DNA of 64,000 nucleotides from Syntrophales bacterium (GCA_040767195.1 JAXGPA010000002.1:224001-288000), one strand, 5' to 3'. Shown: positions 11,676 through 33,068, counted from the first letter of the stretch. Numbers and translations: made by a program. The notes: generated from the letters alone by a model not told the origin.

Positions 11676-13511
11676 TCACCGTCTCCCGGGCCCTTCCCCT
11701 CCCGGCTCCCCGACCTTTCCCGGCCCGGGGGCCGGGAGGTTGTCTTCCGCCTTTTTCCGCCAGGCCTCCGCCTCATCCGTTTTTCCCTGCCTTTCCAGGG
11801 CCTGGGCCAGTTCGCGATAAAGGTCCCCGCGGTGTTCCGGCGCGTATTTCACGACAAAGGCGAAGTGTTTTTCCGCCCCCTCGACATCCCCCTCCAGGAG
11901 GGCCAGCCGGCCCAGTTGAAAGTGGGCGTTCACGGCCTTTTGCAGGCCGATGGGGTAATACCCCCTTTCCCGGTCCTCGGGAATCGCGAGGGCCCGGCGG
12001 AAAGAGGCGGCGGCCTTCTCCGTGTCACCACCCCGGAGCGACGCCTGTCCGAGAAAATACAGGGCCACGCCGTAATGGGGCCGGATCTCCAGGGCCGCCT
12101 CGTAATGGGCCGCGGCCGCGTCCACCGCGCCTTTCCCGAGAAGAACGTTCCCTAAATTCACCTCCATGAGGGCGCTGCCGGGCACGACGTCGACGGCCCG
12201 CCTGAAAAGGGACTCGCTGTCCTTCCAGTGGGATACCTGCGAAAAGGTTATGGCCGCCAGGGCCGCGAGAACGACACCGCCGGACGCGGCGAGGAAAGCC
12301 CGTTTCCGCCGCCACCCCCCGAGAAGGTCGGGGACCCCCCAGGCGGCGATGATGAAAAGGCCGACCAGGGGAATGTAGGTATAACGGTCCGCCACGGCAT
12401 GGGATCCCACCTGGACGATCCCGATCATGGGAACCAGGGCCAGGAGATACCACAACCAGCCCGTTACCAGGAAGGGGCGGCGCTTTGCCGCCCTGAAAAC
12501 CAGGAAAGACAGGACGGCCAGGAAAACGGCCGCCGCCGCCGCCTTCAGGTGAAGCACCTGGGGCCCCATGGCCGGCCAGTCCGGAAGGTCCATGGGATGG
12601 GGGTAATAAACGGCCAGAGACAGGGGCCAGACCGTTTTCCAGATGTAAACGACATAAGAATACAGAGCGTTTTCCACCCGCACCGCCAGGGGGATGGCGT
12701 CGAGGGAACGAACGGCGCCCCCGTAATACTGGGCCAGGAAGGTCATGACACTTGACAACAGGGCCAGGCCAAGAAAAGGGGCCTTCTCGAGAAGCAGGCG
12801 CCCCGTGGACGAACCGCCGCCTTCCGGCGCCGCCGTTTTTTTTCTTTTTCTTTCCCCCCCGGCGGGCACGGCGGGCGGCGGCGGGCCCCATCTTTCCAGG
12901 GGCCAGTAATCAAGCAGGAGGAGCAGGAAGGGGAGCGTGACCAGGGTGGGCTTTGAAAGGAGGCTCAGGGTGTAAAGGAGAAGGGCCGCCAGGTAGAGAG
13001 CTCTCCCCTTTCTCTTTGCATACAGAAAATAAAGGGCGATACACCCGAAACCGAAGAAGGCGCTGAGAAGGTCTTTCCGCTCCGATATCCAGGCCACGGA
13101 CTCCACGTGAAGGGGGTGAAGGGCGAAGAGAGCGGCCACGAAGGCGCTTCTCCGGATAGCGCCGGTGCCGATTGCGAGAAGAAGAAACAACAGAATGGTA
13201 TTCGCCCCATGGAAAAAAACGCCGGCCAGGTGGTGACCGCCCGGGTTCATGCCGAAAAGGGACACGTCGGCCATGTGTGAGATCCAGGTCAGGGGATGCC
13301 AGTTGTAGGAATGAAAAGTCCGGAAGGCCCAGCGTATCCCCTCGGGACGAAGCCCTTCCTTAACGGCGGGGTTCGCCGTGACGTAAAGATCGTCGTCCAG
13401 AACGAGGAAGTCGAAACGGGCCGTCTGAAGATAGGGGACACAGGCGGCGAGGAAAAGAAGAAGGGAGAGAAGAACGATCCCGCCATGCTTTTTTGAGATG
13501 AACCTTGACAT
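11676..13511 (-). CDS. TMTC-like GT-C membrane glycosyltransferase with C-terminal TPRs
   Basis: 'DDDLYV', 'WHPLTWISH', 'FALHPLHVESVAWISERKD', 'ADRYTYIP' and a TPR tail. Confidence 0.8.
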   Translation of the reverse strand: MSRFISKKHGGIVLLSLLLFLAACVPYLQTARFDFLVLDDDLYVTANPAVKEGLRPEGIRWAFRTFHSYNWHPLTWISHMADVSLFGMNPGGHHLAGVFFHGANTILLFLLLAIGTGAIRRSAFVAALFALHPLHVESVAWISERKDLLSAFFGFGCIALYFLYAKRKGRALYLAALLLYTLSLLSKPTLVTLPFLLLLLDYWPLERWGPPPPAVPAGGERKRKKTAAPEGGGSSTGRLLLEKAPFLGLALLSSVMTFLAQYYGGAVRSLDAIPLAVRVENALYSYVVYIWKTVWPLSLAVYYPHPMDLPDWPAMGPQVLHLKAAAAAVFLAVLSFLVFRAAKRRPFLVTGWLWYLLALVPMIGIVQVGSHAVADRYTYIPLVGLFIIAAWGVPDLLGGWRRKRAFLAASGGVVLAALAAITFSQVSHWKDSESLFRRAVDVVPGSALMEVNLGNVLLGKGAVDAAAAHYEAALEIRPHYGVALYFLGQASLRGGDTEKAAASFRRALAIPEDRERGYYPIGLQKAVNAHFQLGRLALLEGDVEGAEKHFAFVVKYAPEHRGDLYRELAQALERQGKTDEAEAWRKKAEDNLPAPGPGKVGEPGGEGPGRR

Positions 13512-13564
13512 GATTTACCGTTTCTTTTACCTTTTCCCAAAAAATAAAGGCGTTCAGAGTTTTT

Positions 13565-15085
13565 ATGGCCAGGCGGCGGGAAAAAAGGAGATCCGGCACC
13601 GCTTCTTCACTGGATAAAACACAAGGGGCGGAGACATCAAGGGAAAAATTGTTTTCCCTCCTGATCCTCCTGTCTTTTCTCTATTTCGCCGCCCGGCTCG
13701 TCTATTTCGCCGTTCACGTCGCCCACGGCATTCCCCCCGACGAGGACTTTCACTACGGTCTCTGCCGTGTCTACGCCGGGGCCCTTCTGCTCCCCGGAAG
13801 CGGGGACGCCGATCCCGCTTTCGGCCCCGCGACCCACATTCCCTACCTGTATTATTTTCTCATGGGGAAGATGCTCTCACTGAATGTTTTTCCCCTTTCG
13901 GACCTGGTGTTCCTCCGTCTTGTCAACGGCCTCCTGGCCCTTTTGACGGTGTACACGGGGTATCGCTGGATCCGCCTGATGACCCCGAACCCCCTGGTCC
14001 ATCTTTTTTTCGTCGTCCTTCTCACGAACACCCCCATGTTCAGTTTCCTGGCCGCCGCCGTTTCCTATGACAACCTGACGAACCTGCTGGCCGTGTCGAC
14101 CCTCTTCTTTTTCCACGCCTACCTGAAAAAGAAAGACTCGGAGGCCCTCCTCTGTTTTTTCATCTCCCTCATGGCGGGAACCCTGACCAAAAAAACCTTC
14201 TTTCCCCTCGTGCCGGTTTTTGTTCTCCTTCTCCTTTTTCATGAGCGTAAAAACCTCCGCGCCCTGGCGCGGGCCATCGTCCCCGGGACCGGGACTTTTT
14301 CGAAACGCCGTTTCGGCTTCACGGCCCTCGCCGCCCTTCTTCTCGTTCTCAACGGCACCCTCTACATGGGCAATTACGCCCGGTACGGCACCCTCTTTCC
14401 CGGCGCCTCCCAGATTCTCGGGAAGGAGGAGGCCATGAAATTCCGGATCTATGCCCGGGACAGCGTCACGTCCCGGTATCGTGCCGGTAAAATCAGCTTC
14501 GAGGACGCTCTCGAGCAGGCCAGGGCCATTCCCCACCCCGGGGACCGGATGGATGCCCTCTATCTTCTCGAAAGGGCCAGGAGATACAAGGAGCAGCCCT
14601 ATCCCCTGATGAACCGCCTGGAGTACGTCGGGACATGGCTGACCATCGTCCTGAACCGGACGGTGGGGATCTTCGCCCACCAATCCCTCCGGAAATATGG
14701 TCATCCCTTCACCGTGTACATCGGCATATACCTTTTTGCCCTCATCCTTCTCATCCCCACCTGGCGCCCTTCCGACGGGGAAGGCATGACCACCGACGCC
14801 CTCGTGCTTTTTTTCTTCTACGCCGTCGTCCTCATGCAGTTCGTGAATTATCCCATCTACCTGCAAAGCCTGACGGTGGGAAAGACCGTTCACGGGCGGT
14901 ACCTGTTTCCCGTCATCGTGCCCTTTTACGGAATCATGAGCTTCTACATGCTGAAGCCTTTCGGCCGGAAGATCCAGCTCGGTCTCGTCGCGGTCGTCTC
15001 CCTCTATTTCATCTGGGGGGATTTTCCTTATTTTCTCATGAATGCCGGTCCCCAATGGTTCGCCCAGGGTGCCGGTCCTTTGTAA
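13565..15085 (+). CDS. Polytopic membrane protein, GT-C (ArnT/PMT/DUF2142-like)
   Basis: 'PPDEDFH' acidic loop after TM1, 'HIPYLYY', 'VSYDNL', 'HGRYLFP'; many TM segments. Confidence 0.65.
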   Translation: MARRREKRRSGTASSLDKTQGAETSREKLFSLLILLSFLYFAARLVYFAVHVAHGIPPDEDFHYGLCRVYAGALLLPGSGDADPAFGPATHIPYLYYFLMGKMLSLNVFPLSDLVFLRLVNGLLALLTVYTGYRWIRLMTPNPLVHLFFVVLLTNTPMFSFLAAAVSYDNLTNLLAVSTLFFFHAYLKKKDSEALLCFFISLMAGTLTKKTFFPLVPVFVLLLLFHERKNLRALARAIVPGTGTFSKRRFGFTALAALLLVLNGTLYMGNYARYGTLFPGASQILGKEEAMKFRIYARDSVTSRYRAGKISFEDALEQARAIPHPGDRMDALYLLERARRYKEQPYPLMNRLEYVGTWLTIVLNRTVGIFAHQSLRKYGHPFTVYIGIYLFALILLIPTWRPSDGEGMTTDALVLFFFYAVVLMQFVNYPIYLQSLTVGKTVHGRYLFPVIVPFYGIMSFYMLKPFGRKIQLGLVAVVSLYFIWGDFPYFLMNAGPQWFAQGAGPL

Positions 15086-15115
15086 CGATGAGAAGGGTTT
15101 CAGGACAAGCGCGTC

Positions 15116-16300
15116 ATGAAAAAAAAAGACCCCATCCTTGAACGATGGAAAGCCGGCGTCTCGGATTTTCTCTATGACCGTCTGGAACCCGTGGCCGTAC
15201 GATACCGGGGCATCCTGAAAAAAGTTGCTTTTATCGGTATCACGGGGAGTTATGCCAAAACCACGACCAAGGACCTCATCGCGGCCATTCTGAGAGGCCG
15301 AGCCCGAACCACGGCGACGAAGGGCACCTTGAACAGCCCGCCCCAGATCATCAAGACGATTTTCCGGACAACGCCTTTTCACCATGCCTGCGTTATCGAG
15401 CTGGGAGCGGGCGGACCGGGGAGCCTGGACCGGGGCATCAGGCTCGCCGCCCCTTCCATAGCGGTCATCACCCATGTGGGCCTGGACCACTACAGCGCCT
15501 TTCGATCCCGGGAGGCCGTGGCCGTCGAAAAATCGAAACTCGTCGCCGCCCTTCCTGCCACGGGCGTCGCGATCCTGAATGCCGACGACCCCCTGGTCCT
15601 GGCCATGGGGGAAAAAACAGGCGCCAGAAAGATCCTTTACGGCATCCAGTCTCCCGAGGCCGACCTGCGGGCCTCCCACATCCGATCGTCGTGGCCGGAC
15701 CGGCTCACCTTCACCGTGCACGCAGACGACAGGGCCTTCCCCGTGGAAACGAAGCTCTGCGGCAAACACTGGGTCCCAGCGGTCCTGGCGGCCCTGGGCA
15801 CCGCCCTGGCGATGAATCTGACCCCGGAAGAGGCCCTCCCATCCATTGCGGCCTTCGACCCCCCCGAAAGAAGGATGTCCCCCCTTCCTCTGGGTTTGAA
15901 CATCACCATCATACGGGATGACTACAAGGCCCCTTATCTTTCCGTTCCCTCATGCCTGGACTTTCTGAGGGATGCCCAGGCGAAAAGAAAGATCTTCATC
16001 CTCGGCACCCTGTCGGACTACCCGGGAGACTCCTCGAGAAAATACAAAAGGGTTCTCAAAGAAGCGCTCTCGGTGGCCGAAAAGGTTTTTCTGGTCGGAC
16101 CCTTTCGGGCCCATATCGCAAGCAAGTTGAGTGAAACGGGTTTCGCCGGCCGTACCCGTGGATTTGTCAGCATGGATGACCTGGCCAGGCATCTGTGTGA
16201 AACATCGGAACCGGGAGACCTCATTCTGACCAAGGGAGCCCGTAACCCGGACCGGTTCGACAGACTCGTCGACATCCTGCAAAAAAGACTTCCGTCATAG
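15116..16300 (+). CDS. Mur ligase family protein (MurF-like, lacking the N-terminal domain)
   Basis: 'IGITGSYAKTTTKDL', 'VITHVGLDH', 'ILNADD', 'IIRDDYKA', 'GDLILTKG'. Confidence 0.8.
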   Translation: MKKKDPILERWKAGVSDFLYDRLEPVAVRYRGILKKVAFIGITGSYAKTTTKDLIAAILRGRARTTATKGTLNSPPQIIKTIFRTTPFHHACVIELGAGGPGSLDRGIRLAAPSIAVITHVGLDHYSAFRSREAVAVEKSKLVAALPATGVAILNADDPLVLAMGEKTGARKILYGIQSPEADLRASHIRSSWPDRLTFTVHADDRAFPVETKLCGKHWVPAVLAALGTALAMNLTPEEALPSIAAFDPPERRMSPLPLGLNITIIRDDYKAPYLSVPSCLDFLRDAQAKRKIFILGTLSDYPGDSSRKYKRVLKEALSVAEKVFLVGPFRAHIASKLSETGFAGRTRGFVSMDDLARHLCETSEPGDLILTKGARNPDRFDRLVDILQKRLPS

Positions 16301-18196
16301 GCCGTCGACGCACTTCCGGAACCACAACTCCGTCATCACCAGGCGCCAGAGCTGCTCCGGCCTCGGGAAACGATGATAAACCGGCGGGCGGCCTCGCGGC
16401 GGCAGAAGAAGACGCAGCTTTTTTTCGTCCAGAATCCCCCTCTGAAGGCTCCGGGCGGACAGGAGGAGATCCCGGATTTCCTCGTAATTGCCCGGCATGG
16501 TCATCCATCGAAACACCGGAGCGGGCATGCCGAGCTTCCGCCGGCGGAACCGGATCGGGGCAGGAAGGTCCTTCGAAAAGGATCTGCGAAGGAGACTCTT
16601 TGTCCACCCGTCGCTGATCTTTTCGTTCCAGGGAAGGCGGAAACAGAAGCGGACCAGCTTGGGATCCAGAAAGGGCATTCTCAGATCCAGGGCGAAAGCC
16701 CGGCCCAGGACATGGGAGGATCGAAGCATCTCGGGAAGGCCGGAGTACCGGAAGGTGAGCCACAAGGCGTTGTTCAGCCGGCTTTCAAAGGGTTTTTCCA
16801 CATCGGAACGAAACCATGTTTCGGGGCATCTCTCCGGCGGCACCGGAGGATGGGAAAAAACGAAATCCCGGTTCAAAACGGAAGTCAAGGGCCACAGATT
16901 TGTGGTGACCTTCCGGAAGAATAGCTGTACCAGCAGGATCCGTAACCAACCCAGGGGAGAGGGAATCATTTCCATCAGTCCAAGAATATCGGAAATCAGA
17001 CCCGCCTCTTTCTTCCTTTCCTTTCCATCCCGGAGAAAGACCCGATCCGCCAGATAGGGGACAACGAGATTGGGATACCCCGCCAGCAGCTCGTCGGGAC
17101 CCGTTCCGTCGAAAACCGTGTCTCCGTGACGGACCGCTTCCTTGAACAGGAACCACTGGGCGAACCGGCCCCTGAGAGGTGTCGGTTCGTCGTGAACCCG
17201 GACGATATCCGCCATTGTCGTCAGCATGTCCCGGGGATCGGGCGTCACCCAGTGAATATCGTATTTTTCCGGGTTATCAGCAGCTGCGGCTGTGTAAACG
17301 CTTTCGTCCAGGTCTCTGTCTTCATCATAACGAAGGGCGACGCAGGAAACTTTCTTTTTCGTCATCCCGGCAAGGGTTCTCAAAAGAACCGTGGAATCGA
17401 GGCCGCCGCTTGTGAAAACGGAGAAGGGGCGGGCTTCTTCTGTCTGCCGGGAGATCGCCTGCCTCACGAGAGTCCGGAACGCTTCGTCGAGACCTTCACG
17501 GGAAATTTCCTCCTCCCCGAGGGGGGACCAGTATTCGGTGGTCTCCCGCTTCCCGGATTGGATAACGAGAAACGATCCCGGCGGCACGGACCGGATGTTA
17601 CGAAAGAAAGTCTCCTCCCCGGCGTCGGGGGACCCGCCTTCCAGGAACCAGCAAAGCTCCCGGTGATTGACCTGCCTTTCCTCCGGAAAGGCGGCGTGAA
17701 TGGCCCCGGTCTCCGAGGCGAATACAAAACGGTCGGGGGATGCGGCATAAAAGAGGGGTCTCATTCCCAGGGGGTCCCGGGCGATGGTCAGGCGCTCCGA
17801 CCGCCCGTCCCAGAAAGCCATGGCCCAGACACCTCGAAAACGGGAGAAGCACGCCGGTCCCCAGACTTCGTAGGCCCTGATCAGGATCTCCTCCGGGACG
17901 GGAGAGCGGAGCCGCACACCTTTTCCCGCCAATTCATCTCTCAGCTCATCTGCGTTCCAGAGGGTCCCGTCCCAGACAACCCGGAGGGGCCCCCTGGCGA
18001 AACCGCCTTCCTGCTCCATTTCGGAAAAGACCGGGGGAAAACAGCGGTGCTGGACGAGACCCACGCTTTTCCGGAAAAAAATCTCCCCTCTTCCGGAACG
18101 GGGCCGCGAAAGGCTTTCCGACAGGATCTCCAGGGCGGCCCGGGGGACCGTCTCGCCCGAAAGATTCCAGATGCCACCGACCCCCGCCAGGGTCAC
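16295..18196 (-). CDS. Asparagine synthase-like amide ligase with a degenerate glutaminase domain
   Basis: 'ARDPLGMRPLFY', 'FASE', 'SGGLDS', 'DGTGPDELLAGY', 'RMPFLD'; N-terminus reads VGGI instead of MCGI. Confidence 0.85.
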   Translation of the reverse strand: MTLAGVGGIWNLSGETVPRAALEILSESLSRPRSGRGEIFFRKSVGLVQHRCFPPVFSEMEQEGGFARGPLRVVWDGTLWNADELRDELAGKGVRLRSPVPEEILIRAYEVWGPACFSRFRGVWAMAFWDGRSERLTIARDPLGMRPLFYAASPDRFVFASETGAIHAAFPEERQVNHRELCWFLEGGSPDAGEETFFRNIRSVPPGSFLVIQSGKRETTEYWSPLGEEEISREGLDEAFRTLVRQAISRQTEEARPFSVFTSGGLDSTVLLRTLAGMTKKKVSCVALRYDEDRDLDESVYTAAAADNPEKYDIHWVTPDPRDMLTTMADIVRVHDEPTPLRGRFAQWFLFKEAVRHGDTVFDGTGPDELLAGYPNLVVPYLADRVFLRDGKERKKEAGLISDILGLMEMIPSPLGWLRILLVQLFFRKVTTNLWPLTSVLNRDFVFSHPPVPPERCPETWFRSDVEKPFESRLNNALWLTFRYSGLPEMLRSSHVLGRAFALDLRMPFLDPKLVRFCFRLPWNEKISDGWTKSLLRRSFSKDLPAPIRFRRRKLGMPAPVFRWMTMPGNYEEIRDLLLSARSLQRGILDEKKLRLLLPPRGRPPVYHRFPRPEQLWRLVMTELWFRKCVDGL

Positions 18197-19353
18197 CCTT
18201 CATGACCTCCCAGGATCTCGTAATTCTTCAGGGCTCTTTCGTTCCAGTTTTTCATCCGTTTCCGGAAGAGGGCTTCCGTTTCCTTCCTTCGTTGCCAAAG
18301 CACGGAAAAGCGTTCCCTGAGCAGGGGGCCGTCCAGGCTTTCAACGGGAAGATAACCCGACTCGAGAGACAGCACCTCGAAGACCCCCTGACCCTTCGCC
18401 GGGGTGATGGCGATTCCCATGACGGGAACGCCGGAAGAGGCGGCCAGGATGAGGGCGTGCATGCGGACGGCGATGACCGTGTCCATGAGACCCAGGACAG
18501 CCTTCAACTCTTCCGGGGTATAGTCGCCCTTCAGAACAAAGGTCCGTTCCCGGTTACACAGCTTTTCCCGGATTTCTTCCGAGTACCGGTCGTCGTCCTG
18601 GCCGTAATCGTCTTCACTTCTTGCTTTTCTCATGGGAACGAAGACAAGGCGGACCCCCCAGTCGTCGACAAGGGAATCGAGAAAACGGACATAGGCCCGA
18701 TCCGTTCGATCCGCCCGCTGCCTGTCTTCCACCGAAACACGCCGGGTGGAACCGGGAAGAAACCGGTGGGAAAAATGAAACCACCGCCGCAGGGAAATAC
18801 CGACAGCGGGCGTTTCATCCTGGGGGATGCCTTCCGCCTCCAGGATCGCCCGCCCCCTGTCGCGACCCGCCGAGGGAAGGGAAAACGCCAGGTCCGCCGT
18901 GAGTTCCATCTTGTCATCCCGCACCCCGAGTTGTTCAAGCAACTCCATGGAAAGCCTGTCTCTCACACCGATCCGTTCAGCCATGTTGACTACCGGTCCC
19001 GTGACGGCCTTTCCCAGGGAGGATTCGACAGGCCCGGCGCCGACTCCGAGGCAGAAAACTTTTTTTCCGAGACTCTTGGCCACCCCGATGAGAAACAGGC
19101 CGAAAAGGAGAAAAAACTGGCTCGTGAGGTCCTGAAAGGGATGCCCGCCGCCGAGGATGACGGTGTCGCAACCTACGATGGCCCGGAGCAGTTTCAGGAC
19201 CCGGCGGGGCGACCGGGTCCCCGAGTAGGAAAAAACCTCTATCCGGGCATCCGGGAATCGTTCGCGAAGGTCGGGAAGCATGGCGCGAAGAATCGCCTGG
19301 TCCCCCTTGTTGGCGGAGTCGACGCCGTCATTGCAAAGGACGATTTTTTTCAC
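18193..19353 (-). CDS. Polysaccharide pyruvyltransferase family protein (CsaB/WcaK-like)
   Basis: 'NKGDQAIL', 'ILGGGHPFQD', 'GVGAGP', 'IGVRD', 'RMHALILA'; start placed at GTG 19353, which overlaps the upstream stop. Confidence 0.85.
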   Translation of the reverse strand: MKKIVLCNDGVDSANKGDQAILRAMLPDLRERFPDARIEVFSYSGTRSPRRVLKLLRAIVGCDTVILGGGHPFQDLTSQFFLLFGLFLIGVAKSLGKKVFCLGVGAGPVESSLGKAVTGPVVNMAERIGVRDRLSMELLEQLGVRDDKMELTADLAFSLPSAGRDRGRAILEAEGIPQDETPAVGISLRRWFHFSHRFLPGSTRRVSVEDRQRADRTDRAYVRFLDSLVDDWGVRLVFVPMRKARSEDDYGQDDDRYSEEIREKLCNRERTFVLKGDYTPEELKAVLGLMDTVIAVRMHALILAASSGVPVMGIAITPAKGQGVFEVLSLESGYLPVESLDGPLLRERFSVLWQRRKETEALFRKRMKNWNERALKNYEILGGHEG

Positions 19354-21375: not shown

Positions 21376-21446
21376 ACCGCAGGGTCCAACCGCTTCTTTT
21401 TGCCGCAAGTGACCGTCGAGACCATGCTCGAGACAAAAGACCTTCC

Positions 21447-22352: not shown

Positions 22353-22562
22353 TCTTCGGAAAAAAGATGCCAGGGTATTCATGGTCGCGTTTGTCTGAAA
22401 ACGGAAAAGGAAGAGGGGTTCACCCTGGCCTCATTTCCTCGCCTGGAAGATGTAAAGAAGTTGACGACCGATCTTGGTTTCGTTCAGAGAATGATCGCTC
22501 TTTGGGGATCGGTCTTTGAGTGGAGTGTTTAGAACTCTTGAGACCGAAAAAATCTCAAATTT

Positions 22563-24790: not shown

Positions 24791-24958
24791 AAGAAGACGG
24801 AACCCAGCCCCGTTTACCTCATTCCCGTTACCTTCTGAATGAACGTCCGCCCCCGGTCATGGCCCGACCCGGGATGAAAGGTTGCGGGTCGGGTCTGTTG
24901 TGTAATTTTCTCCTTCCTGTTATGGTACCGGCACCAAAAGAACCATTATCATAAAAAA

Positions 24959-26227
24959 ATGGCCCATCACGCAGAGTTGACACTGCTTCCTTCCCGTTTG
25001 ACGGGGAAAATGATTCATCTCGAAGGGCAGCTTCGAACCGGGGGAAAATCCTCTATTCGTCTCTGGTACAGAATACCCGCTGAATTCAAGGACTGGGTCA
25101 CCGACCGGGCTGATCCCTTCGTTCTCGGCTTTCTCTTCCCGGCCATGCAGACCGGGCGGCCTGTCCTTGTCCGGGGAACCGTCTCGCCCTCCCTGCTTCG
25201 GAACCTCGAGGAATTCATGGCCGTCTGGCAGGCCTGGAGGCCGGACCGGTACCGGCAGGTGGAAATCATCCCGGACCAGGAGGAAGAGGCCGTCGAAGGG
25301 CCGGGAAACGGAGAAGCCGTCATGCCCTTTTCCGGGGGCGTCGATTCCTGCTTCACCGCCTGGAGACACAGAAAGGCCCTGGCGGGAAGGCGTTCGACGA
25401 ACCTGACGGCGGGGGTATTCATCCACGGGTTCGACATCCCGCTCAGGAGAAGCCGCTCTTTCGATCTATCACAGAGAAGGAACGAGGAGCTTCTTGGAAG
25501 CATCGGGATGACGCTCATCCCCCTTGCCACAAATTTCAGAGACCTCCCGGTCAGCTGGGCCGATTCCCATGCCGCCGCCCTTGTGTCCTCCCTGACCTTG
25601 TTCGGAAAAAGGTTTTCCCGGATCGTGGTCGCCTCGTCGGAACCCTACGTCAGCTTCGTCACCGGTAAGATATGGGGAAGCAACCCCCTCACCGACCGGA
25701 TGCTGTCCTCCGACAGGCTGAAGGTGATCTATGACGGGGCGGAATATTCGAGAATCGAAAAAATACAGTCCATGAGCGACTGGCCGGAGGCGCTCCGCTT
25801 CCTTCGGGTATGCTGGGAGGGAAAGGAGAAACACGAAAACTGCTGCCGGTGCGTGAAATGCATTCGGAATATTCTCATCTTCCGGGCCCTGGGAAAGGGA
25901 CTCCCCCCCTGTTTTCCGAGGGACGCATCGGATGATGACATTCGGAAGCTTTCCGTGAAAGGAACCTTTTCACAAATTGATTTTACAGACGTCATGGAAA
26001 TGGCAATGAGCAAAGGATATGGTGAGGCATCGTGGGTTACCGCCATGAGGGAAGCCCTGGGCAGAAAACCCCGGATCGGCGGTGCCCATGAGGCGGCAAA
26101 GAACCTGTTATTCCAGCGAAGCCCGACGAGCCATCTTTTCCGTTCCCTGATTTCCCTGATGCGGCGTTTCGGCGCTGGATCCCGGATGCATGACATCTCC
26201 CCCACAACAGGGGAAGGTTCCCCGTGA
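24959..26227 (+). CDS. PP-loop ATPase, QueC-like, with Cys cluster (paralog 2)
   Basis: 'FSGGVDS' and 'VCW...NCCRCVKCIR'; colinear with and very similar to 23564..24790. Confidence 0.65.
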   Translation: MAHHAELTLLPSRLTGKMIHLEGQLRTGGKSSIRLWYRIPAEFKDWVTDRADPFVLGFLFPAMQTGRPVLVRGTVSPSLLRNLEEFMAVWQAWRPDRYRQVEIIPDQEEEAVEGPGNGEAVMPFSGGVDSCFTAWRHRKALAGRRSTNLTAGVFIHGFDIPLRRSRSFDLSQRRNEELLGSIGMTLIPLATNFRDLPVSWADSHAAALVSSLTLFGKRFSRIVVASSEPYVSFVTGKIWGSNPLTDRMLSSDRLKVIYDGAEYSRIEKIQSMSDWPEALRFLRVCWEGKEKHENCCRCVKCIRNILIFRALGKGLPPCFPRDASDDDIRKLSVKGTFSQIDFTDVMEMAMSKGYGEASWVTAMREALGRKPRIGGAHEAAKNLLFQRSPTSHLFRSLISLMRRFGAGSRMHDISPTTGEGSP

Positions 26228-26231
26228 GCGC

Positions 26232-27761
26232 ATGGATCCTGAAGCGCAGGAAAAATCGAATCGTCTGAGCGGACCGGGAATACGCTCCATCGCGCGGAAT
26301 GCCTTCTATCTCATGGGAAGCCACTGGGTGAACATCGCCATCCGGCTGTGCTATGTCGTCTTTCTCGCCCGGTGGCTCGGCCCGGAACTCTACGGCCTTT
26401 TCAATTACGCCATGTCCTGGTACATGGTGATGCTGCCTCTCGCCGGCCTGGGGCTGGGAATCATCATGGGCCGCGAAATCCCCCGGAATCCCGACCGCCG
26501 GTCCGATGTGCTGTCGGGAACTTTTTCGCTCCGCGTCATCAGTTCGGCTTTCTGCGCCCTGCTGTGCGCCCTTTCGGGGCTCCTCCTGGAAGAAAACCCG
26601 GAAGCCCGGCGTGTTCTTCTCGTTTTCTCCACGGCCCTCATGGGAAGAAGTATGGCCTACTGGGCCTCCAGCGCCTTCACCGCTTTCGAGTCGAGCCAGT
26701 ACATCCTTCTTTTTCATTCCATTTTTAGATTCGTCGAACTTCTCTTCTCGGTGACCTGCATCCTCCTGGGCGGTGGACTTCTGGGACTGTCGCTGATCCA
26801 TTCTCTCAGCTGGTGGGCCGAAGCGATGTTCAGCCTGCTCTGGATAAAAAGATCCTTTTCCCCCGTGGCCTTCCGCATCAGGAAGAAGGAACTCGCGAAT
26901 TATTTCAGCCGCGGCCTGTTGCTCGGAATCTTCGCCCTTTCCTACGCCTTCGTTCTCCAGGGTCCTCTTATCCTGTACCGGTATACAGCGGGACTGGGAT
27001 CGGATCTCGGCCAGCTCGCCCTGGCCATGCAGGCGCTCATCCTCCTGGCCTCCCTGCCGGGATTTCTAACAGCCGGTGCGCTTCCCGTTCTGAGCCGGTC
27101 CATCCTGAGAGGGGACGGGAAAGCCCGCTTTTTCACCGAGTCCACCATCCGGGTTACAATCATCGCGGGGACGGCCCTGGGACTGACGGGCCTGGCGGTC
27201 CTGCCCTGGTTCGTCGAAAAGATCTTCGGCCCGTCATACGGAAACGCGGGAAGCCTTCTCGGCTGGACGCTCTGGTTTCTTGTTCCCGTCGCCGTGAATA
27301 CCATGATTAGGGGCGTCTTTCAGGCCAGGGGGGAATACGCGGTACCGACTCTTTTTTCCCTTGCCGGCGCGTCCGTTCTCCTTTTGGTCATCTACCCGGC
27401 CATATCCCTCATGGGACCGGCAGGAGTCATCGGTGCCCTGGGACTGGCCCTCCTTGTCGAAACCGCGGGGCTCGTCAAGGCGGCCCGGCAGGCCGTCCAC
27501 CTGGATATCCGGACCACATTTCTCAAGCCGTTCCTCACGGCCCTGGCCGCCGCCGTTGTGTTTTTATTAGGAAGCGAGTATCCCGTCGCGGCCCTTCCCG
27601 CAAGCATGGCGGTTCTTCTCGCGGGAACGGTTTTTCTCCGCCTCCTTTCCCCGGAAGAAATTTTCGCGGCGAGGCATGTCTTCCGGTCATTCTCGTCCCT
27701 TGCCAAGGAGGAAGAAAGCGGAGAACCGGGACAACCGTCGAGCGGCAAAAGCCGGTCTTGA
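26232..27761 (+). CDS. Oligosaccharide flippase (Wzx/MOP superfamily)
   Basis: 'IARNAFYL', 'LARWLGPELYG', 'GLGIIMGREI'; about 12-14 TM segments. Confidence 0.85.
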   Translation: MDPEAQEKSNRLSGPGIRSIARNAFYLMGSHWVNIAIRLCYVVFLARWLGPELYGLFNYAMSWYMVMLPLAGLGLGIIMGREIPRNPDRRSDVLSGTFSLRVISSAFCALLCALSGLLLEENPEARRVLLVFSTALMGRSMAYWASSAFTAFESSQYILLFHSIFRFVELLFSVTCILLGGGLLGLSLIHSLSWWAEAMFSLLWIKRSFSPVAFRIRKKELANYFSRGLLLGIFALSYAFVLQGPLILYRYTAGLGSDLGQLALAMQALILLASLPGFLTAGALPVLSRSILRGDGKARFFTESTIRVTIIAGTALGLTGLAVLPWFVEKIFGPSYGNAGSLLGWTLWFLVPVAVNTMIRGVFQARGEYAVPTLFSLAGASVLLLVIYPAISLMGPAGVIGALGLALLVETAGLVKAARQAVHLDIRTTFLKPFLTALAAAVVFLLGSEYPVAALPASMAVLLAGTVFLRLLSPEEIFAARHVFRSFSSLAKEEESGEPGQPSSGKSRS

Positions 27762-27795
27762 CAGGACCATGGCAAAATGAAATAAAAACAGGCTG

Positions 27796-28845
27796 GTGCC
27801 CGTCATGAAAGATAAGGGAAAAACGCCCCGATTTACCATTGTCTTATCCGTCGAACACTCCGAGAAAGACCTGGGCCTGTGCCTGGATTCCCTTGCAAAT
27901 CTGGATTACCGGAAAGACGAATACCGGATTGCAGCCGTCGAATGCGGCGCCGTGCCGGAAATCGGCAGGTTTCTTAAGGATAATGGACCCTTCGGCGTTC
28001 TTGATATTCAAGTGTTTTCCCTGCCGCCCAAAACATTGGAATCGAAGAAGGTCCCCGCTCATCTAGCCCGCGTCAACGAGGGCAGGAACAAGGCCATCGA
28101 AAGCCTTCCCGCCGAATACTATGTCTTCACGGAAACCGACTGCACGTTCCCTTCCGACTGGTTGCGAAAAATTGACGCCCACCTGGACGATCGGCCGGGA
28201 ATTCTCGGAGGACCAGACGTTCTTCCCGACAAAATGGATACCATCACTAACGTCATCGACGTTATCCTGAATTCGCCTGTTGGAACCGGTGGCATACGCC
28301 CAGGGGAAAAAGGGACGTCAAAGCAGTATTTCCCCCACAAGGAAAACATGGTCATTCCGGCCGCCGTCCTTCAATCCGTCGGAAAATTCCCGGAAAACAA
28401 TATATTCGGGGCGGAAATGGAGATGACTAACCGAATTCTCGAGGCGGGATACACCGTTAAATATATGGACGACAATCCGGTCTACCACAGGAGGATCACA
28501 TCGCTCCGGAATTTCCTTGGTATCACAAGCTACCGGGCTTCTGAAAAAATTGCCCTCCTGGGAAAGCGAATATCCCTTCTGCGAGTTCTTCGCTACCTCG
28601 TTCCGGGAGTCGCTGCTTTCATTCTCATCCTCGCGCTCCTGGCGCCCTTCTTTTCCTGGAGCCGCTGGTTTCTCGGTCTTGTCGCTCTTTTTTACGGGGG
28701 AATCATCACCTGGGTATCCCTTCGGGGGGCTCTTCAAAAAAAGAGCGTCCTTGTGGGACTGGGTGTCTTCTTTATTCTGCCTCTCTTCCACTGGAACATA
28801 GCCACCGGTGTCCTGTCCGGCATCCTGAAGAAGAAGGCTGTTTGA
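27796..28845 (+). CDS. Divergent glycosyltransferase family 2 with C-terminal TMs
   Basis: 'CLDSLANLDY', 'GRNKAI', 'FTETDC' (DxD-like), 'GGPD'; same layout as 19350..20348. Confidence 0.7.
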   Translation: MPVMKDKGKTPRFTIVLSVEHSEKDLGLCLDSLANLDYRKDEYRIAAVECGAVPEIGRFLKDNGPFGVLDIQVFSLPPKTLESKKVPAHLARVNEGRNKAIESLPAEYYVFTETDCTFPSDWLRKIDAHLDDRPGILGGPDVLPDKMDTITNVIDVILNSPVGTGGIRPGEKGTSKQYFPHKENMVIPAAVLQSVGKFPENNIFGAEMEMTNRILEAGYTVKYMDDNPVYHRRITSLRNFLGITSYRASEKIALLGKRISLLRVLRYLVPGVAAFILILALLAPFFSWSRWFLGLVALFYGGIITWVSLRGALQKKSVLVGLGVFFILPLFHWNIATGVLSGILKKKAV

Positions 28846-28856
28846 GCTGAGGACCC

Positions 28857-29987
28857 ATGGCTTCTATTCAAAGCGGAAAAATCGCCTGCTTGATCCGGGG
28901 GCTCCTCCTGCCGGAAAAATACGGCATTCTGTTCGACAGGCAGACCTTCCCGTTGAAACACCTGTCCTGGCAGAAAAAACTGAATTACGTCATTCAGGGA
29001 ATCCGAAGCGGATTCAATCCCTGGAACGGGTTTGGGTTACCCCCGGTTCTCCAGATCGAACCCGTGAATGACTGCAATCTCCGCTGCCGGACCTGCGCGT
29101 TCGGAGCCGGCCTGATCCGCAGGCCGCCTGAAGCCATGCCCTTCGATCTCTACAAGTCGATCATCGACCAGGTCGCAAACAGGGTGAGCCTCATGGCCTT
29201 CTGGGCCTGGGGCGAACCGTTTGCGCACGAAGAGGCCTGCGACATGATCCGGTATGCCAAGGACAGCGGCCTTCTCGTACACACGAGCACAAACGGTCAT
29301 TTTTTTACCACGGCGGCGGAAGCCCGCCGGGTCATCGATTCCGGCCTCGACAGCATCATCCTGTGCGTCGACGGGCTCGATCAGAGAACCTACGAAACAT
29401 ACCGCGTGAGAGGACAGCTTGAAAAAGTCCTGACCTCCACGGAAAATCTCGTGACCGAGAAAAGAAGGCTCGGGAAGGCGACACCGACAATCACTCTCCG
29501 TTTCCTTGTCATGAAACACAACGAACACCAAGTCGAGGCTTTCAAGGCAATGGCCCGGGAGATGGGCGTGGACGCCTTGAGCCTCCGCCTTCCCGCCGTC
29601 CAGCGGGAAAAGGTCAACCTGGAGAAAACCCTGGCCCCCCGTCTGATGCCGATCCAGGAGGATTCTGGGGAAAAAAGGCACCGGGGAAGCCGGATATGGT
29701 GTCCATCTTCGGCACCCTGCAGCCGGCCTTTGGCGAATCTCACGATTTTCAGCAACGGGGATGTCGTTCTCTGCGAAAACGACTACAATGCCGAGTTCTC
29801 TCCGGGGAATGCTTCCCGAAACCGCATTCGGGATATTCTTTCGTCCAGAAAGGCGAAAGCTCTTCTTGAAGCTTTCCGGCGAAATCCTGAAAGCCTGCCT
29901 TTTTGCCGAAACTGTGACAAACACGACCTGAAAGGCGACAGGCTGAACATCTACCACCGGAAAATCGAAAAGGAGACTTCCACCTGA
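28857..29987 (+). CDS. Radical SAM protein with SPASM/twitch domain
   Basis: 'CNLRCRTC', 'WGEPF', 'STNG', C-terminal 'C...GDVVLC...CRNC'. Confidence 0.88.
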   Translation: MASIQSGKIACLIRGLLLPEKYGILFDRQTFPLKHLSWQKKLNYVIQGIRSGFNPWNGFGLPPVLQIEPVNDCNLRCRTCAFGAGLIRRPPEAMPFDLYKSIIDQVANRVSLMAFWAWGEPFAHEEACDMIRYAKDSGLLVHTSTNGHFFTTAAEARRVIDSGLDSIILCVDGLDQRTYETYRVRGQLEKVLTSTENLVTEKRRLGKATPTITLRFLVMKHNEHQVEAFKAMAREMGVDALSLRLPAVQREKVNLEKTLAPRLMPIQEDSGEKRHRGSRIWCPSSAPCSRPLANLTIFSNGDVVLCENDYNAEFSPGNASRNRIRDILSSRKAKALLEAFRRNPESLPFCRNCDKHDLKGDRLNIYHRKIEKETST

Positions 29988-31099
29988 TGGAGAAGCTGGC
30001 CAAGAAGATCCTCTTCCGTCACGGCGGGTATGAGGCAGCGAGAAAAATCCATTATTTCCTGGCAACCCGGAAGTTGGAAAGAAAGATAGGTCGCTTTCAG
30101 GAAACAGGGCGCCTGCCTCTGCCCGATTCCGCCATGTTCGAACTCACCCAGCGGTGCAACCTGAACTGCCGGATGTGCTACCAGGACCGTAAGGCCCTGA
30201 CGGAAAAATCCGAGATCGAAGGCCGGGAAATCGGGAGTTTTTTCCAGGAGAATTCTTTTCTGAAAAAAGTGACCCTTTACGGTGGCGAAATATTCCTTCG
30301 GAAGGACCTTCTGGACATCGTCCGTTCTCTCGGTCCCGGCCGGAACATCATCCTCCCTACGAACGGAACCCTGGTCGGGGAGCGGCACGTGGAAGAACTG
30401 AAACGACTCGACTCCGTCAGCACGATGTGCATCTCCCTGGATGGGCCCGCCGACATTCACGATGCCATCCGGGGACGGAGCGGAACCTTCCGGAAGGCCG
30501 CAGAGACCGCTCGCTCCCTGGCTCCGGTCATTCCCGTCACGGTCACATCGGTCATACAGAACGACAACATCGAGGTCCTTCCAGAAATGGTCGATTTTTG
30601 CGCCTCCCTGGGCGTCCGCAAGGTGAAATACGAAATAGAACGCCTGTACGGAGAAGAAAGAATGAACCGGACGATCCGTTCGGCAGGTCTTCACGAAGGG
30701 GAAACGGCGGTTCTCATGAAGGGCAGAATCCGGGACTACTCACTGGAGACGTTGCGCCGTGTTTTGGAAGAATGCCTGCGGAAGGGAAAAAAGAGAGGCG
30801 TCTACGTCACATTTGAACCGCCCTACCTGATGGAGGAACTCGAAAGCTGCTATCACAACAACCTCCGCCAGAAATACCGGTGTTTCTGCCGCGGATTCTC
30901 CATGGCGACCATCGCCCCCGACGGCGACGTTCTGCACTGTTACGTCATCCGCAAAACCTTCGGAAACATCAGGGAACGATCTCTCGCCGACATCTGGAAT
31001 TCCCCAGAGGCTGCCCGTTTCCGCAAAAACCTCCTCGAACAGAACCTGACGCCGATCTGTGAGAACTGCGGGTTCATGACCCTCGGAAAGAATAAATGA
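29987..31099 (+). CDS. Radical SAM protein with SPASM/twitch domain
   Basis: 'CNLNCRMC', 'GGEIF', 'TNG', 'ISLDG', 'GDVLHC...CENC'; TGATG coupling to the upstream gene. Confidence 0.9.
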   Translation: MEKLAKKILFRHGGYEAARKIHYFLATRKLERKIGRFQETGRLPLPDSAMFELTQRCNLNCRMCYQDRKALTEKSEIEGREIGSFFQENSFLKKVTLYGGEIFLRKDLLDIVRSLGPGRNIILPTNGTLVGERHVEELKRLDSVSTMCISLDGPADIHDAIRGRSGTFRKAAETARSLAPVIPVTVTSVIQNDNIEVLPEMVDFCASLGVRKVKYEIERLYGEERMNRTIRSAGLHEGETAVLMKGRIRDYSLETLRRVLEECLRKGKKRGVYVTFEPPYLMEELESCYHNNLRQKYRCFCRGFSMATIAPDGDVLHCYVIRKTFGNIRERSLADIWNSPEAARFRKNLLEQNLTPICENCGFMTLGKNK

Positions 31100-31115
31100 C
31101 GCCGGAACCTCACGA

Positions 31116-32069
31116 TCAATAAAAGAGCCTTCCGTTCAACCGGCCGATGGCGTGAAGGGTAGCCCTGTCCAGAACGTTTCGATGTTTCAGAACAGCGGGG
31201 ACGCCCTTGAGACAATCCCTGATTCCATAAATGTAAGACAGGAAATGCCGCTCCCGAAGAGCTCTCAGAAAGAGATATCCCCACCAGAAACAGGCATAAG
31301 AAACCACGCAAGGCCAGGGAAGGTTGCGAAGAGAAAGCCATACCCGGTTTCTGGCATTGGAGTAGATCCATCGATCCGACGGCCTCGCCTCGGGGCTCAC
31401 CCGGTGGTGGACGACGAGATCGGAAGCCCGGACGATCCGGTATCCCCGCCGCAGCACCCGCCAGGAAAGATCCAGTTCTTCGCAGCCATAGAAGAAAGGC
31501 TCGAAAAAAGCACCCACCTCCTCTACGATCTCCCGGCGAATCGCGAAAGCCACGGCACAGAAATAGGAGGCCTCATAGTCTTCATGAAGGACGGCCTTGT
31601 CCCTTCGAGGAATGGCCGCGTAGTCTGTTTCTCCCGAGGGAAAGAGGCGGGAGTCGGCGTTCAGGATTCCCAGGGCCGGATCCTGCCGAAACCGTTCCCG
31701 GATTCTCGACAGGGCTTTCGAATCGGCAAAAGAGGCGTCATCATCGAGGAAAACCAGGAGATCTCCCGTTGCCAGGCGGATGCCGGCGTTCCGTCCGCCC
31801 GTCGGTCCCCCGTTGGCGTTGAGCCGCTTGAAACGGACATTCCGCCAGCCCTCGAGATAGATTTTCCCTTCCGCCGTGGAACCGTTGTCCACGACGACGA
31901 GTTCGAAATCCCCGTCCTGGCACCTCAGAGTCGCCAGGGTCCGGTTGATTTCGTCGTACCGGTTGTAGGTTATGAGGATGAGGCTGACCGACGGCGAGGG
32001 CCTTTTTCCAGTCCCGTTTCCTGTGTGCTCCATCCTTTCTGTCATGGAACCCGGGGACGCTTTTTCCAT
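31116..32069 (-). CDS. Glycosyltransferase family 2
   Basis: 'LITYNR', 'VVDNGS', 'GRNAG', 'FLDDD', 'EELDLSWR'. Confidence 0.9.
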   Translation of the reverse strand: MEKASPGSMTERMEHTGNGTGKRPSPSVSLILITYNRYDEINRTLATLRCQDGDFELVVVDNGSTAEGKIYLEGWRNVRFKRLNANGGPTGGRNAGIRLATGDLLVFLDDDASFADSKALSRIRERFRQDPALGILNADSRLFPSGETDYAAIPRRDKAVLHEDYEASYFCAVAFAIRREIVEEVGAFFEPFFYGCEELDLSWRVLRRGYRIVRASDLVVHHRVSPEARPSDRWIYSNARNRVWLSLRNLPWPCVVSYACFWWGYLFLRALRERHFLSYIYGIRDCLKGVPAVLKHRNVLDRATLHAIGRLNGRLFY

Positions 32070-33068
32070 TTACGCCTCATCGGTCCGTGACGCCTTCACT
32101 GTCTCCGGGGACGTTTGTTCTCTCTCCGGGCGGTCCAGTTCCAGTTTCCGCACGCGGTAAAGGACCTCCTCAACGAGTTTCCGGTTGAAGGAGATGACGT
32201 CACCTACGATTCCCACGACGATGAGCTGGAAACCGATGATGAAGAGGATGGCCGCCAGGATGAGTGACTGGATGTGTCCCGCCTGGTGGCTGATCAGGAA
32301 GTTGACGAGAAATCGGATCGACGGGATGAGACCGAGGAAGATGAAGAAGCCTCCCATGAGCGTGAAGACCTTGAGGGGGCGGAACATGGTGTAGGTCCTG
32401 ACCATGGTGGCCATCTGGCTCGTGACAAACCCGAAGAGGTGCTTCATGAGACGGGACTCGCGGGTTTTCGGGTTCGTGCCGATGGCCACGGTGGCGATGG
32501 CGAGCCCCTTGTTGCCCGCCTGGAGGATCGTCTCCACGGTATAGGAGTAATTGGACAGTATGTTGAGCTGCAGGGCCGCCTCGCGGCTGAAGGCCCGAAA
32601 GCCGCTGACGGCGTCGGTGACGTCCGTCCCGGACAGGCGCCGGACGACAAAGCTCCCCAGTCTTTGGAGCATCTTCTTCTTCATGGAGAAATGGGGGATG
32701 TCGTTGGTCCTGCGGTCGCCGACGACCATCTCGGCCTTTCCGTCGAGGATCGGCGCGATGAGCCTCGGGATGTCCTCTCCCCGGTACTGGTTATCCCCGT
32801 CGGTGTTCACGATGATGTCCGCCCCGAGGCGGAGGGAGGCGTCGAGCCCGACGAGGAAGGTCCTGGCCAGGCCCCGGTTCCGGATGTTCCGGACGATGTG
32901 GTGGACCCCCGCTCTCCGGGCGGCCTCCAGGGTGCCGTCGGTGCTCCCGTCGTCGATGACGAGGATCTCCACGGCGTCGATTCCGGCGATGGCCCGGGGA
33001 ATGTCCGCGACGGTCCGGGGAAGGGTCTCTTCCTCGTTGTAGCAGGGAATCTGGACAATCAGTTTCAT
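32070..33068 (-). CDS. Glycosyltransferase family 2 (polyprenol-phosphate glycosyltransferase, DPM1/ArnC-like)
   Basis: 'QIPCYNEE', 'IDDGSTD', 'NTDGDNQY', 'DAVSGFRA'; two C-terminal TMs. Confidence 0.9.
   Translation of the reverse strand: MKLIVQIPCYNEEETLPRTVADIPRAIAGIDAVEILVIDDGSTDGTLEAARRAGVHHIVRNIRNRGLARTFLVGLDASLRLGADIIVNTDGDNQYRGEDIPRLIAPILDGKAEMVVGDRRTNDIPHFSMKKKMLQRLGSFVVRRLSGTDVTDAVSGFRAFSREAALQLNILSNYSYTVETILQAGNKGLAIATVAIGTNPKTRESRLMKHLFGFVTSQMATMVRTYTMFRPLKVFTLMGGFFIFLGLIPSIRFLVNFLISHQAGHIQSLILAAILFIIGFQLIVVGIVGDVISFNRKLVEEVLYRVRKLELDRPEREQTSPETVKASRTDEA

Follow-up and report, generated by a model that had tools for sequence, protein, structure and literature searches.

A strain-variable surface-glycan locus of a Syntrophales bacterium with undescribed tailoring enzyme families

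We analysed positions 11676 to 33068 of a 64,000-nucleotide stretch of a Syntrophales bacterium (the window, G000:C6:224001-288000, from the genome G000 of 2.39 Mb and 98.8% completeness). The region is a surface-glycan locus of a generally familiar type, hypervariable and equipped with undescribed tailoring enzyme families. It consists of a stable frame and a variable cargo, not of one conserved system, and its strongest gene link is that between a QueC-like enzyme and a pyruvyltransferase. At about even confidence, we propose that the locus would make a short lipid-linked glycan that is pyruvylated and then amidated, with aminoacylation and methylation varying between strains, and that membrane proteins of the glycosyltransferase (GT) type C would hand it over to a periplasmic acceptor.

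Frame and cargo of the locus

The frame emerges from a second genome of the same genus (G001), which carries at the same chromosomal site, at 49–71% identity, the TMTC-like gene (62%), the GT-C-like gene (65%), the pyruvyltransferase, a family 2 glycosyltransferase (GT2; 19350..20348, 71%), the QueC-like PP-loop gene PP1 (69%), the Wzx flippase (55%), another GT2 (27796..28845, 49%), two radical S-adenosylmethionine (SAM) genes (66% for the second) and a soluble GT2 (63%). The site is devoid of the Mur-like gene, AsnB, the methyltransferases, the second PP-loop gene (PP2) and the terminal GT2. This frame without accessory genes, together with the co-occurrence counts below, leads us to reject the view that the tailoring cassette noted in a sequence-only reading of the window is one conserved system. 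The parts list of that reading fared better: all 17 open reading frames (ORFs) were found in place and correctly typed, with Pfam matches for its ordinary glycan genes (four GT2, Wzx, the pyruvyltransferase and, of the two GT-C-like membrane proteins, the PMT_2/DUF2142 one). Corrections concern three starts; the pyruvyltransferase probably begins at 19353, not 19605, and methyltransferases 1 and 3 probably begin at 20512 and 22587. The genes are as follows.

11676..13511, minus strand: TMTC-like membrane protein, predicted GT-C transferase (frame); multi-transmembrane (TM) domain, DD motif after TM helix 1, C-terminal tetratricopeptide repeats (TPRs; Pfam)
13565..15085, plus strand: GT-C-like membrane protein PMT_2/DUF2142, 506 aa (frame); PF13231 28.4 bits against a cut-off of 26.1, DE motif
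15116..16300, plus strand: MurF-like ATP-dependent ligase, no N-terminal domain, no Cys tail (accessory, swapped allele); PF08245 and PF02875
16295..18196, minus strand: AsnB-like amide synthetase, intact synthetase motifs, no catalytic Cys1 (accessory); PF00733 and glutamine amidotransferase (GATase) matches
18193..19353, minus strand: polysaccharide pyruvyltransferase, CsaB/WcaK-like (frame); PF04230 134 bits (cut-off 25.3)
19350..20348, minus strand: GT2 with C-terminal TM helices (frame); PF00535 or PF13632
20512..21375, plus strand: methyltransferase-fold protein 1, motif I GATPE (accessory, swapped allele); longest ORF from 20428, GC content 0.52
21447..22352, plus strand: methyltransferase-fold protein 2 (accessory); AF2 model with mean confidence (pLDDT) 95, class I methyltransferase fold
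22401..22502, plus strand: probable remnant of a fourth methyltransferase, C-terminal 34 codons; 12.2 bits, E 2e-5 (six frames of the gap), a weak match
22587..23567, plus strand: methyltransferase-fold protein 3 (accessory); longest ORF from 22563, GC content 0.50
23564..24790, plus strand: PP1, PP-loop enzyme of QueC/QatC fold (frame); SGGxDS, C284, C294, C297, C300; unnamed pyruvyltransferase-linked family
24959..26227, plus strand: PP2, second PP-loop paralogue (accessory); 46.5% identical to PP1
26190..27761, plus strand: Wzx-type flippase (frame); PF01943 61.9 bits
27796..28845, plus strand: GT2 with C-terminal TM helices (frame); PF00535 or PF13632
28857..29987, plus strand: radical SAM/SPASM protein 1 (frame); CxxxCxxC at residue 73
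29987..31099, plus strand: radical SAM/SPASM protein 2 (frame); CxxxCxxC at residue 57
31116..32069, minus strand: soluble GT2 (frame); PF00535 or PF13632
32070..33068, minus strand: AglJ/PgfS/ArnC-type GT2, two C-terminal TM helices, predicted polyprenyl-phosphate-sugar synthase; NCBIfam AglJ 118, PgfS 72 and ArnC 71 bits, all below cut-off

The locus is flanked by an RND/truA/sigma region on one side and an acyl-CoA ligase-purQ-purL region on the other, and its TMTC-like and GT-C-like genes diverge from starts 53 bp apart. The sequencing runs that match it best are metagenomes of anaerobic digesters, sludge and sediment, and RNA contigs of one metatranscriptome cover 30/30 bins of it, with DNA carry-over possible. 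As the sequence-only reading had remarked, family-model searches give no match to nucleotide-sugar, Wzy or Wzz families inside 11676–33068, nor to phosphoglycosyltransferases; such genes lie on other contigs. In the test for a Wzx/Wzy pathway, Wzy, Wzz and an initiating phosphoglycosyltransferase were thus all absent among the 17 ORFs, and a Pfam search found no O-antigen-ligase family in the locus. A second, larger glycan region of the genome (G000:C1:490000-549700) holds two Wzx, Wzm/Wzt, a PF00953 transferase, a DegT aminotransferase and an MBOAT gene, and also several surface proteins, Ig-like or with repeats, which are possible acceptors of a glycan. Elsewhere in the window, an element at 39195–39320 has two intergenic matches, at 83–85% identity, in the G001 glycan locus.

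Parts of the frame recur further away. In a genome of another family (G042), orthologues of the terminal GT2 (51%), Wzx (33%), soluble GT2 (41%) and radical SAM protein 1 (30%) share a locus with an adjacent PMT_2 gene, a TMTC-like gene at the far end and, in between, a sulfotransferase, CysN/C and CysD. This frame-like locus (G042:C1:27000-52000; L196-L197) also holds TauE, a second radical SAM gene, a GT8 and a set of adenylation, acyl carrier protein (ACP)-thioesterase and O-methyltransferase genes. The terminal GT2 has three orthologues in other genomes, and next to every one of them lies a large membrane protein, in one case a verified PMT_2. Both radical SAM proteins have the CxxxCxxC motif and SPASM domain, and neither reaches the cut-off of any family; relatives of the first are found among GT2 genes, and in G023 one is fused to GT2 domains and adjoins a DUF2142 gene.

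The two membrane proteins show the features expected of a GT-C or Pgf-type system, namely multiple TM helices with an acidic motif after the first (DE and DD), accompanied by a predicted lipid-phosphate-sugar GT2; the acidic motif is described in PMC6801728. A homologue of the GT-C-like protein in G038 lies within a cluster of GT-C-like genes, and the D39-D40 pair of the TMTC-like family is invariant in 5 homologues. DUF1736 (PF08409) has no match in the TMTC-like protein or in any control genome, and the membrane domain has no sequence match in the PDB; we call the protein TMTC-like from its architecture. Membrane-TPR proteins of this kind often stand in tandem, with G042, G023 and G020 among the carriers.

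A QueC-like family beside pyruvyltransferases

PP1 and PP2 are QueC-like PP-loop proteins, as had been read from the sequence, and paralogues. A word-seeded search collected 224 proteins of their family, here called PP, with E <= 1e-10; the family has no Pfam, NCBIfam or PADLOC model and scores weakly on DUF6395, QueC and QatC. In the 115 members used for motif and model tests, the SGGxDS core and four cysteines are invariant (S124, G126, D128, C284, C294, C297 and C300 in 115/115), matching the ATP and zinc features that PMC13279940 describes in QueC, Cap9 and QatC. The PP1 model (pLDDT 94) has the QueC fold, with Z 13.5 and a root-mean-square deviation of 3.0 over 173 aligned residues against QueC (3bl5) and Z 12.8 against Cap9. 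Its top Foldseek match is QatC (E 5e-6, template-modelling score 0.42), a likeness of fold only. In the ESM Atlas PP1 falls among unnamed clusters, the nearest named ones being DUF6395 and QueC. Within the 90% cluster of PP1, one protein bears a Syntrophales label. Alignment to a true QueC (hhalign) matched the cysteine segment only; the pair that binds 7-carboxy-7-deazaguanine (CDG) is Y129/D131 in B. subtilis, and the segment of PP that by eye seems equivalent to this Tyr/Asp region reads W/Y-G-S-N-P. Sequence searches of the PDB with PP1, methyltransferase 1, both membrane proteins and the TMTC-like profile returned nothing informative.

Several known identities for the family were tried and rejected. 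The QueC model TIGR00364 leaves the window proteins unmatched and matches 10/115 members (best E 0.012), and no queuosine gene context was seen. A substitute for a missing queC is likewise contradicted by the 34 of 61 relatives that have no queC, of which just 3 carry PP, and by G014 and G021, which have both genes. A QatC-type role in defence fails on weak matches (NF041925 in 7/115, best E 0.006; PADLOC in 1/115) and on neighbours, which are methyltransferases and Wzx and include no qatA, qatB or qatD. WbuX (TIGR03573) matches a single member (1/115, E 0.008) and nothing in G000, yet finds true members in G038 and G023, and a Pfam search of the locus detects no gene for the HisH/HisF-type glutaminase that would be its partner. 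MurL models match none of the 115 members in NCBIfam and Pfam, of which the Pfam set may not include newer MurL models, so that a MurL-like epimerisation may still apply.

The gene context of the family was surveyed in 77 GTDB loci centred on PP relatives (from the best 80 of 227 confirmed). Local glycan hidden Markov models (HMMs) found a glycan gene in 44/77 of these loci and a pyruvyltransferase in 33/77, against 16/106 and 0/106 control windows of G000. Since these models had been seeded from the same 77 loci, the pyruvyltransferases were re-checked with Pfam, which upheld 32 of the 33 (L067 did not pass and was removed) and added 3, making 35/77, in nine phyla by record title. The two genes are directly adjacent in 24 of the 35. 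An Akkermansia protein (L072) is a triple fusion of GT2, pyruvyltransferase and PP, and a GT2-pyruvyltransferase fusion adjoins PP in three more loci. Across 61 Syntrophales genomes, PF04230 is present in 5/5 with PP and in 7/56 of the others (Fisher p 1.3e-4, or 6.8e-4 without G001, with kin among the genomes not independent). It lies within 10 kb of 4/6 PP loci and of 5/50 Wzx loci in this order, the Wzx controls coming from fragmented genomes and being, through kinship among loci and genomes, not independent either. The pyruvyltransferase of our locus is the sole PF04230 match in G000. Many PP loci elsewhere are capsule or exopolysaccharide (EPS) loci with Wzc, Wza, Wzy or Wzm/Wzt. A complex prediction for the pyruvyltransferase with PP1 scored 0.00, which is uninformative in either direction.

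Not all branches of the family sit among glycan genes: in Pragia, Kitasatospora and Streptomyces (L024, L025, L029) PP genes lie among glyoxalase-fold, redoxin and aminotransferase genes, which suggests a small-molecule branch. In the literature searched, which covered few subscription papers, neither the PP family nor an amidated pyruvate ketal is described; PMC4616057 and 10.64898/2026.04.15.718822 have no bearing on the family. We likewise found no pairing of a pyruvyltransferase with a 7-cyano-7-deazaguanine synthase, nothing on DUF6395 and no glycoproteomics paper on Syntrophales; no characterised pathway there matched the cluster, in line with the sequence-only reading.

Accessory enzymes and their exchange between strains

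Within the 77 PP loci, the proposed companions of the QueC-like family are rare or missing (methyltransferases 0/77, Mur-like 2/77, close AsnB 1/77). Assignment to a glycan locus holds for the frame, the QueC-like family and radical SAM protein 1, and the idea of one co-travelling cassette is not supported. The refutation test set with the sequence-only reading comes out half against it: the QueC-like family keeps glycan company, and the methyltransferases occur mostly outside glycan loci.

Instead, the accessory genes vary between close strains, five metagenome loci of which were compared (L129-L132 among them). In L132 the Mur-like gene has 67–80% DNA identity between flanks of 96–100%, its allele being 66% identical. 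Methyltransferase 1 has alleles of 63–66% in L129-L131 and of 97% in L132; at the DNA level it reaches 74–77% in L130, where the upstream sequence reaches 95–100%. Methyltransferase 2 is absent from L129, L130 and L131, and L131 has an internal deletion in methyltransferase 3 and a PP1 allele of 70%. Contigs assembled at low depth from public runs contain a joint that skips methyltransferase 2 (run X1) and a joint of 22867-23183 within methyltransferase 3 (X9, X1). The remnant of a fourth methyltransferase lies in the gap 22353-22586; its match is weak, and two control gaps gave no comparable one. GC content over the methyltransferases is 0.50–0.52 against about 0.60 genome-wide. By analogy, this pattern would resemble that of serotype-like surface loci.

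The Mur-like protein, described beforehand as a Mur-type ligase, has the central and C-terminal domains without the N-terminal one: its P-loop lies at about residue 41, and just 30 bp are free upstream. It scores 202 bits on TIGR01143 (cut-off 288.6), has no dcw context and is 27% identical to a separate dcw-type MurF-like protein encoded on C1. The Mur catalytic residues K48, E95, H125, K139, N155, R253 and D268 are invariant. Relatives without the N-terminal domain (Mur-dN) are rare (0/300 sampled Alphaproteobacteria), and 49/115 are long forms, nearly all with a peptidyl-tRNA hydrolase (Pth) domain. Mur-dN directly adjoins PP in L046, L052 and G023, two of these being Hyphomicrobiaceae loci; in G023 the locus is of PglC/PglD type and the neighbouring PP gene is a distant relative. 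The C-terminal Cys tail and the Pth fusion of this family (P0357-P0471; L179:8772-10631) are both missing from the Syntrophales window alleles.

The AsnB-like protein keeps its synthetase half (PF00733 164 bits, SGGLDS loop). Its first cysteine stands at about residue 52, and Cys1 is absent here and in three strain alleles; canonical relatives (L120, L074) start MCGI. By established N-terminal nucleophile (Ntn) chemistry, an enzyme without Cys1 is unable to hydrolyse glutamine, and its nitrogen would come from ammonia or an amine. A divergent Cys-less AsnB-like subfamily (N-terminus MANF), distinct from that of the locus, accompanies PP in 10/77 loci (including L007:6527-8335), in cyanobacteria, Verrucomicrobia, Planctomycetes and others. 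For the Mur-, AsnB- and QueC-like enzymes alike, the label carboxylate-activating, already used in the sequence-only reading, is inferred from the fold.

The three methyltransferase-fold proteins are, as first read, mutual paralogues (28–34% identity), and they have the class I SAM-methyltransferase fold; their motif I is G-x-T-P-E, not the canonical GxGxG. The model of methyltransferase 2 gives VIA Z scores of 17–20 (up to 19.9) to many class I enzymes, which are tied, and Foldseek agrees. Among the tied matches is CmoA, which is not a methyltransferase. The matches fix neither substrate nor reaction type, and we call the proteins putative methyltransferases. Within the wider family, P0130 (1704 aa) contains six stretches that match the GATPE profile, and P0161 and P0166 contain two each. 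Further along the window, 44042-53855 encodes a cluster resembling type II fatty acid synthesis (FabD, acyl-CoA dehydrogenase, FabH, FabA, FabG, FabF, acyltransferase, ACPS) followed by two methyltransferases; the matching site of G001 carries a GATPE-family gene. At 59892-61805 a 637-aa protein with two ThiF-family stretches lies beside two unannotated ORFs.

Proposed pathway, alternatives and known systems

These data lead to the hypothesis of a pathway in six steps, in which our confidence falls in the order given and each chemical step is held less firmly than the overall proposal. The terminal GT2, of AglJ/PgfS type, would load a sugar onto undecaprenyl monophosphate, and the other three GT2s would extend it. 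The pyruvyltransferase would then add a pyruvate ketal from phosphoenolpyruvate, and PP1 would adenylate a carboxylate of the glycan, the likeliest being the pyruvate one, and let it react with ammonia or an amine to give an amide. A sugar may be altered by the two radical SAM proteins. In carrier strains the Cys-less AsnB, the Mur-type ligase and PP2 would add further amides or amino acids, which the methyltransferases would methylate. Finally, Wzx would flip the unit, and one or both GT-C-type proteins would transfer it outside the membrane, probably to proteins.

The carrier and the transfer are proposed because of the type of the terminal GT2 and because the locus has no phosphoglycosyltransferase or polymerase. 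Pyruvate groups bring a carboxylate into the glycan and the QueC fold activates carboxylates by adenylation, so the gene link is most simply read as amidation of the pyruvate by PP1. There are two precedents: protein glycosylation by a GT2 and GT-C proteins is a known design in streptococcal systems (10.1101/2024.05.05.592596), and an enzyme of another fold is known to amidate a capsule carboxylate at the expense of ATP (PMC11800379). In the boldest version, a bacterial TMTC-like or DUF2142 GT-C system would decorate surface proteins with a short glycan; a QueC-type enzyme would turn the pyruvate ketal of this glycan into an amide or even a nitrile, and genes exchanged between strains in the manner of serotype alleles would then add amino acids and methyl groups. 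We regard this version as unlikely, if credible.

A number of observations weigh against our proposal. As regards transfer, the GT-C calls stand on a marginal Pfam score and a motif, with no solved GT-C structure matched; G001 has no priming GT2 at this site; and the TMTC-like family is so common (33/61 Syntrophales genomes, up to 15 copies) that its position is weak evidence. As regards the amide, 42/77 PP loci have no pyruvyltransferase in view (several on short contigs), 33/77 have no glycan gene by the local HMMs, and G021 carries PP and pyruvyltransferase on different contigs. The Mur-like gene may be decaying, because it has no Cys tail, which 100/115 relatives possess, and appears split in L130. 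The methyltransferases, missing from all PP loci surveyed, have a relative 28 kb from the locus in G001; and in 35 distant metagenome loci of their family (some redundant, many short) a glycan gene occurs in 3/35 and a clear PP gene in 1/35, while 16/35 have an adjacent unnamed ATP-grasp-fold gene, a partner that G000 does not have.

That partner has no Pfam hit and resembles RimK-like proteins in the Atlas (template-modelling score 0.70). Because the methyltransferase family pairs with such an ATP-grasp-fold ligase, the methyltransferases may act on a ligated amino acid, in which case Mur or AsnB would tentatively be the ligase here. The two-gene unit itself (L141:397-2116, L150:7183-8950 and 14 other loci) lies among unrelated housekeeping genes.

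Among the alternatives, the one that survives best keeps the same tailoring and makes the product an O-antigen, lipopolysaccharide (LPS)-core or EPS unit, with the 506-aa protein as a divergent polymerase or ligase, priming by a phosphoglycosyltransferase encoded elsewhere and the TMTC-like protein as a bystander. Wzx flippases normally serve units linked to undecaprenyl diphosphate, the other glycan region on C1 offers an initiating PF00953 transferase, many PP loci are of the capsule or EPS kind, and TMTC-like genes are scattered in many copies. Against this stand the missing Wzy, Wzz and O-antigen-ligase matches, the PMT_2/DUF2142 score of the membrane protein and the large membrane proteins, one of them a verified PMT_2, beside the terminal-GT2 orthologues; we regard this product as unlikely, if credible.

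Somewhat less probable is passenger status for the accessory genes, chiefly the methyltransferases: they would sit at a recombination hot spot without acting on the glycan, and the frame alone would be a functional glycan pathway. The deviating GC content, the remnant of a fourth copy, the deletions in other strains, a family found mostly outside glycan loci with a partner that G000 lacks, and the G001 frame without these genes would all fit. Passengers would hardly explain why intact, diverged alleles swap at the same positions in near-clonal strains, why Mur-dN and Cys-less AsnB-like genes recur beside PP in unrelated lineages, or why PP and the methyltransferase family are adjacent in one distant locus (L152).

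Less probable again is the formation by the PP enzymes of acetamidino from N-acetyl groups, as by WbuX, PseA and PtmG, which are PP-loop enzymes, with N-methylation of the amidines by the methyltransferases. The acetamidino synthase PtmG and the N-methyltransferase PtmH are a known glycan-tailoring pair (PMC13317340), and here two PP-loop genes lie directly downstream of three methyltransferases. The WbuX model, however, finds one member in 115 and none in G000, the locus has no glutaminase of the HisH/HisF type, and the PP family tracks pyruvyltransferases, not GATPE methyltransferases.

A peptide or small-molecule pathway (lasso-type AsnB, SPASM proteins, methyltransferases), or a PP that replaces QueC or acts in QatC-type defence, is very improbable and largely refuted by gene context: the AsnB score on lasso cyclase models (186 bits, cut-off 525), the sub-threshold radical SAM matches to maturases of ribosomally synthesised and post-translationally modified peptides (RiPPs), the QatC fold match and the missing queC of G000 are outweighed, for a RiPP cluster, by 11 intergenic gaps without a convincing precursor ORF and no match to a RiPP recognition element (RRE) or (leader) peptidase family, and, for the others, by the queC and qat counts above and by neighbouring ORFs that are all otherwise annotated.

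Bacterial surfaces commonly owe negative charge to pyruvate ketals. If our proposal of pyruvylation followed by amidation is true, pyruvylated glycans would undergo a second reaction, one that we did not find described, a large, widespread and unnamed family would gain a function, and the prediction of glycan structures from gene clusters would have to allow for enzymes that edit the ketal. Near-clonal digester strains that differ only in tailoring alleles, with a related frame that bears sulfation genes, would form a natural experiment relating genotype to glycan mass. Hypervariable glycan loci are commonplace and the bacterium is an uncultured one, which limits the surprise. New here are the frame-and-cargo structure, the strain-level allele exchange, the sulfation alternative, the adjacency of Mur-dN and PP in three lineages and the methyltransferase/ATP-grasp pairing.

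Compared with known enzymes, PP shares the PP-loop fold, SGGxDS and the four-Cys cluster with QueC (3bl5), Cap9 (9nto) and QatC (9y01/9y02; PMC13279940), and like QatC it has extra N- and C-terminal parts. It differs in its 12–13% identity, reaching no family cut-off, in having by eye no YPD motif in the conserved segment where one is expected, and in adjoining pyruvyltransferases and GTs rather than queuosine or defence genes. WbuX, PseA and PtmG, with PtmH, resemble the locus in combining an ATP-using enzyme with a methyltransferase to tailor a surface glycan, whereas PP is another family, pyruvyltransferase-linked and without a glutaminase partner. The pyruvyltransferase has PF04230 in common with CsaB and WcaK, its best models, but stays below both cut-offs (TIGR03609 138 < 213 bits). 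With MurF, MurT, CfbE and FolC, the Mur-like protein shares the central ATP-binding and C-terminal domains and their usual invariant residues, and it differs from MurF in having no N-terminal domain. The Campylobacter capsule amidoligase Cj1438 (PMC11800379) is close to the idea proposed for PP, as it forms an ATP-dependent amide on a glycan carboxylate and is fused to a GT2, as is one PP relative; it is an ATP-grasp enzyme acting on glucuronate, while the candidates here have QueC, AsnB and Mur folds.

The closest design overall is that of PgfS/PgfM1/PgfM2 and GtrB/PgtC2 (10.1101/2024.05.05.592596), which shares with the locus a PgfS/AglJ/ArnC-type GT2 that ends in TM helices, a pair of membrane proteins in which an acidic motif follows the first TM helix, and the absence of a polymerase. 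Our locus, in a Gram-negative host and with no model at cut-off, differs in its three additional GT2s, its Wzx-type flippase, pyruvylation, radical SAM proteins and amide-forming enzymes, and these additions suggest a tailored oligosaccharide rather than a single sugar.

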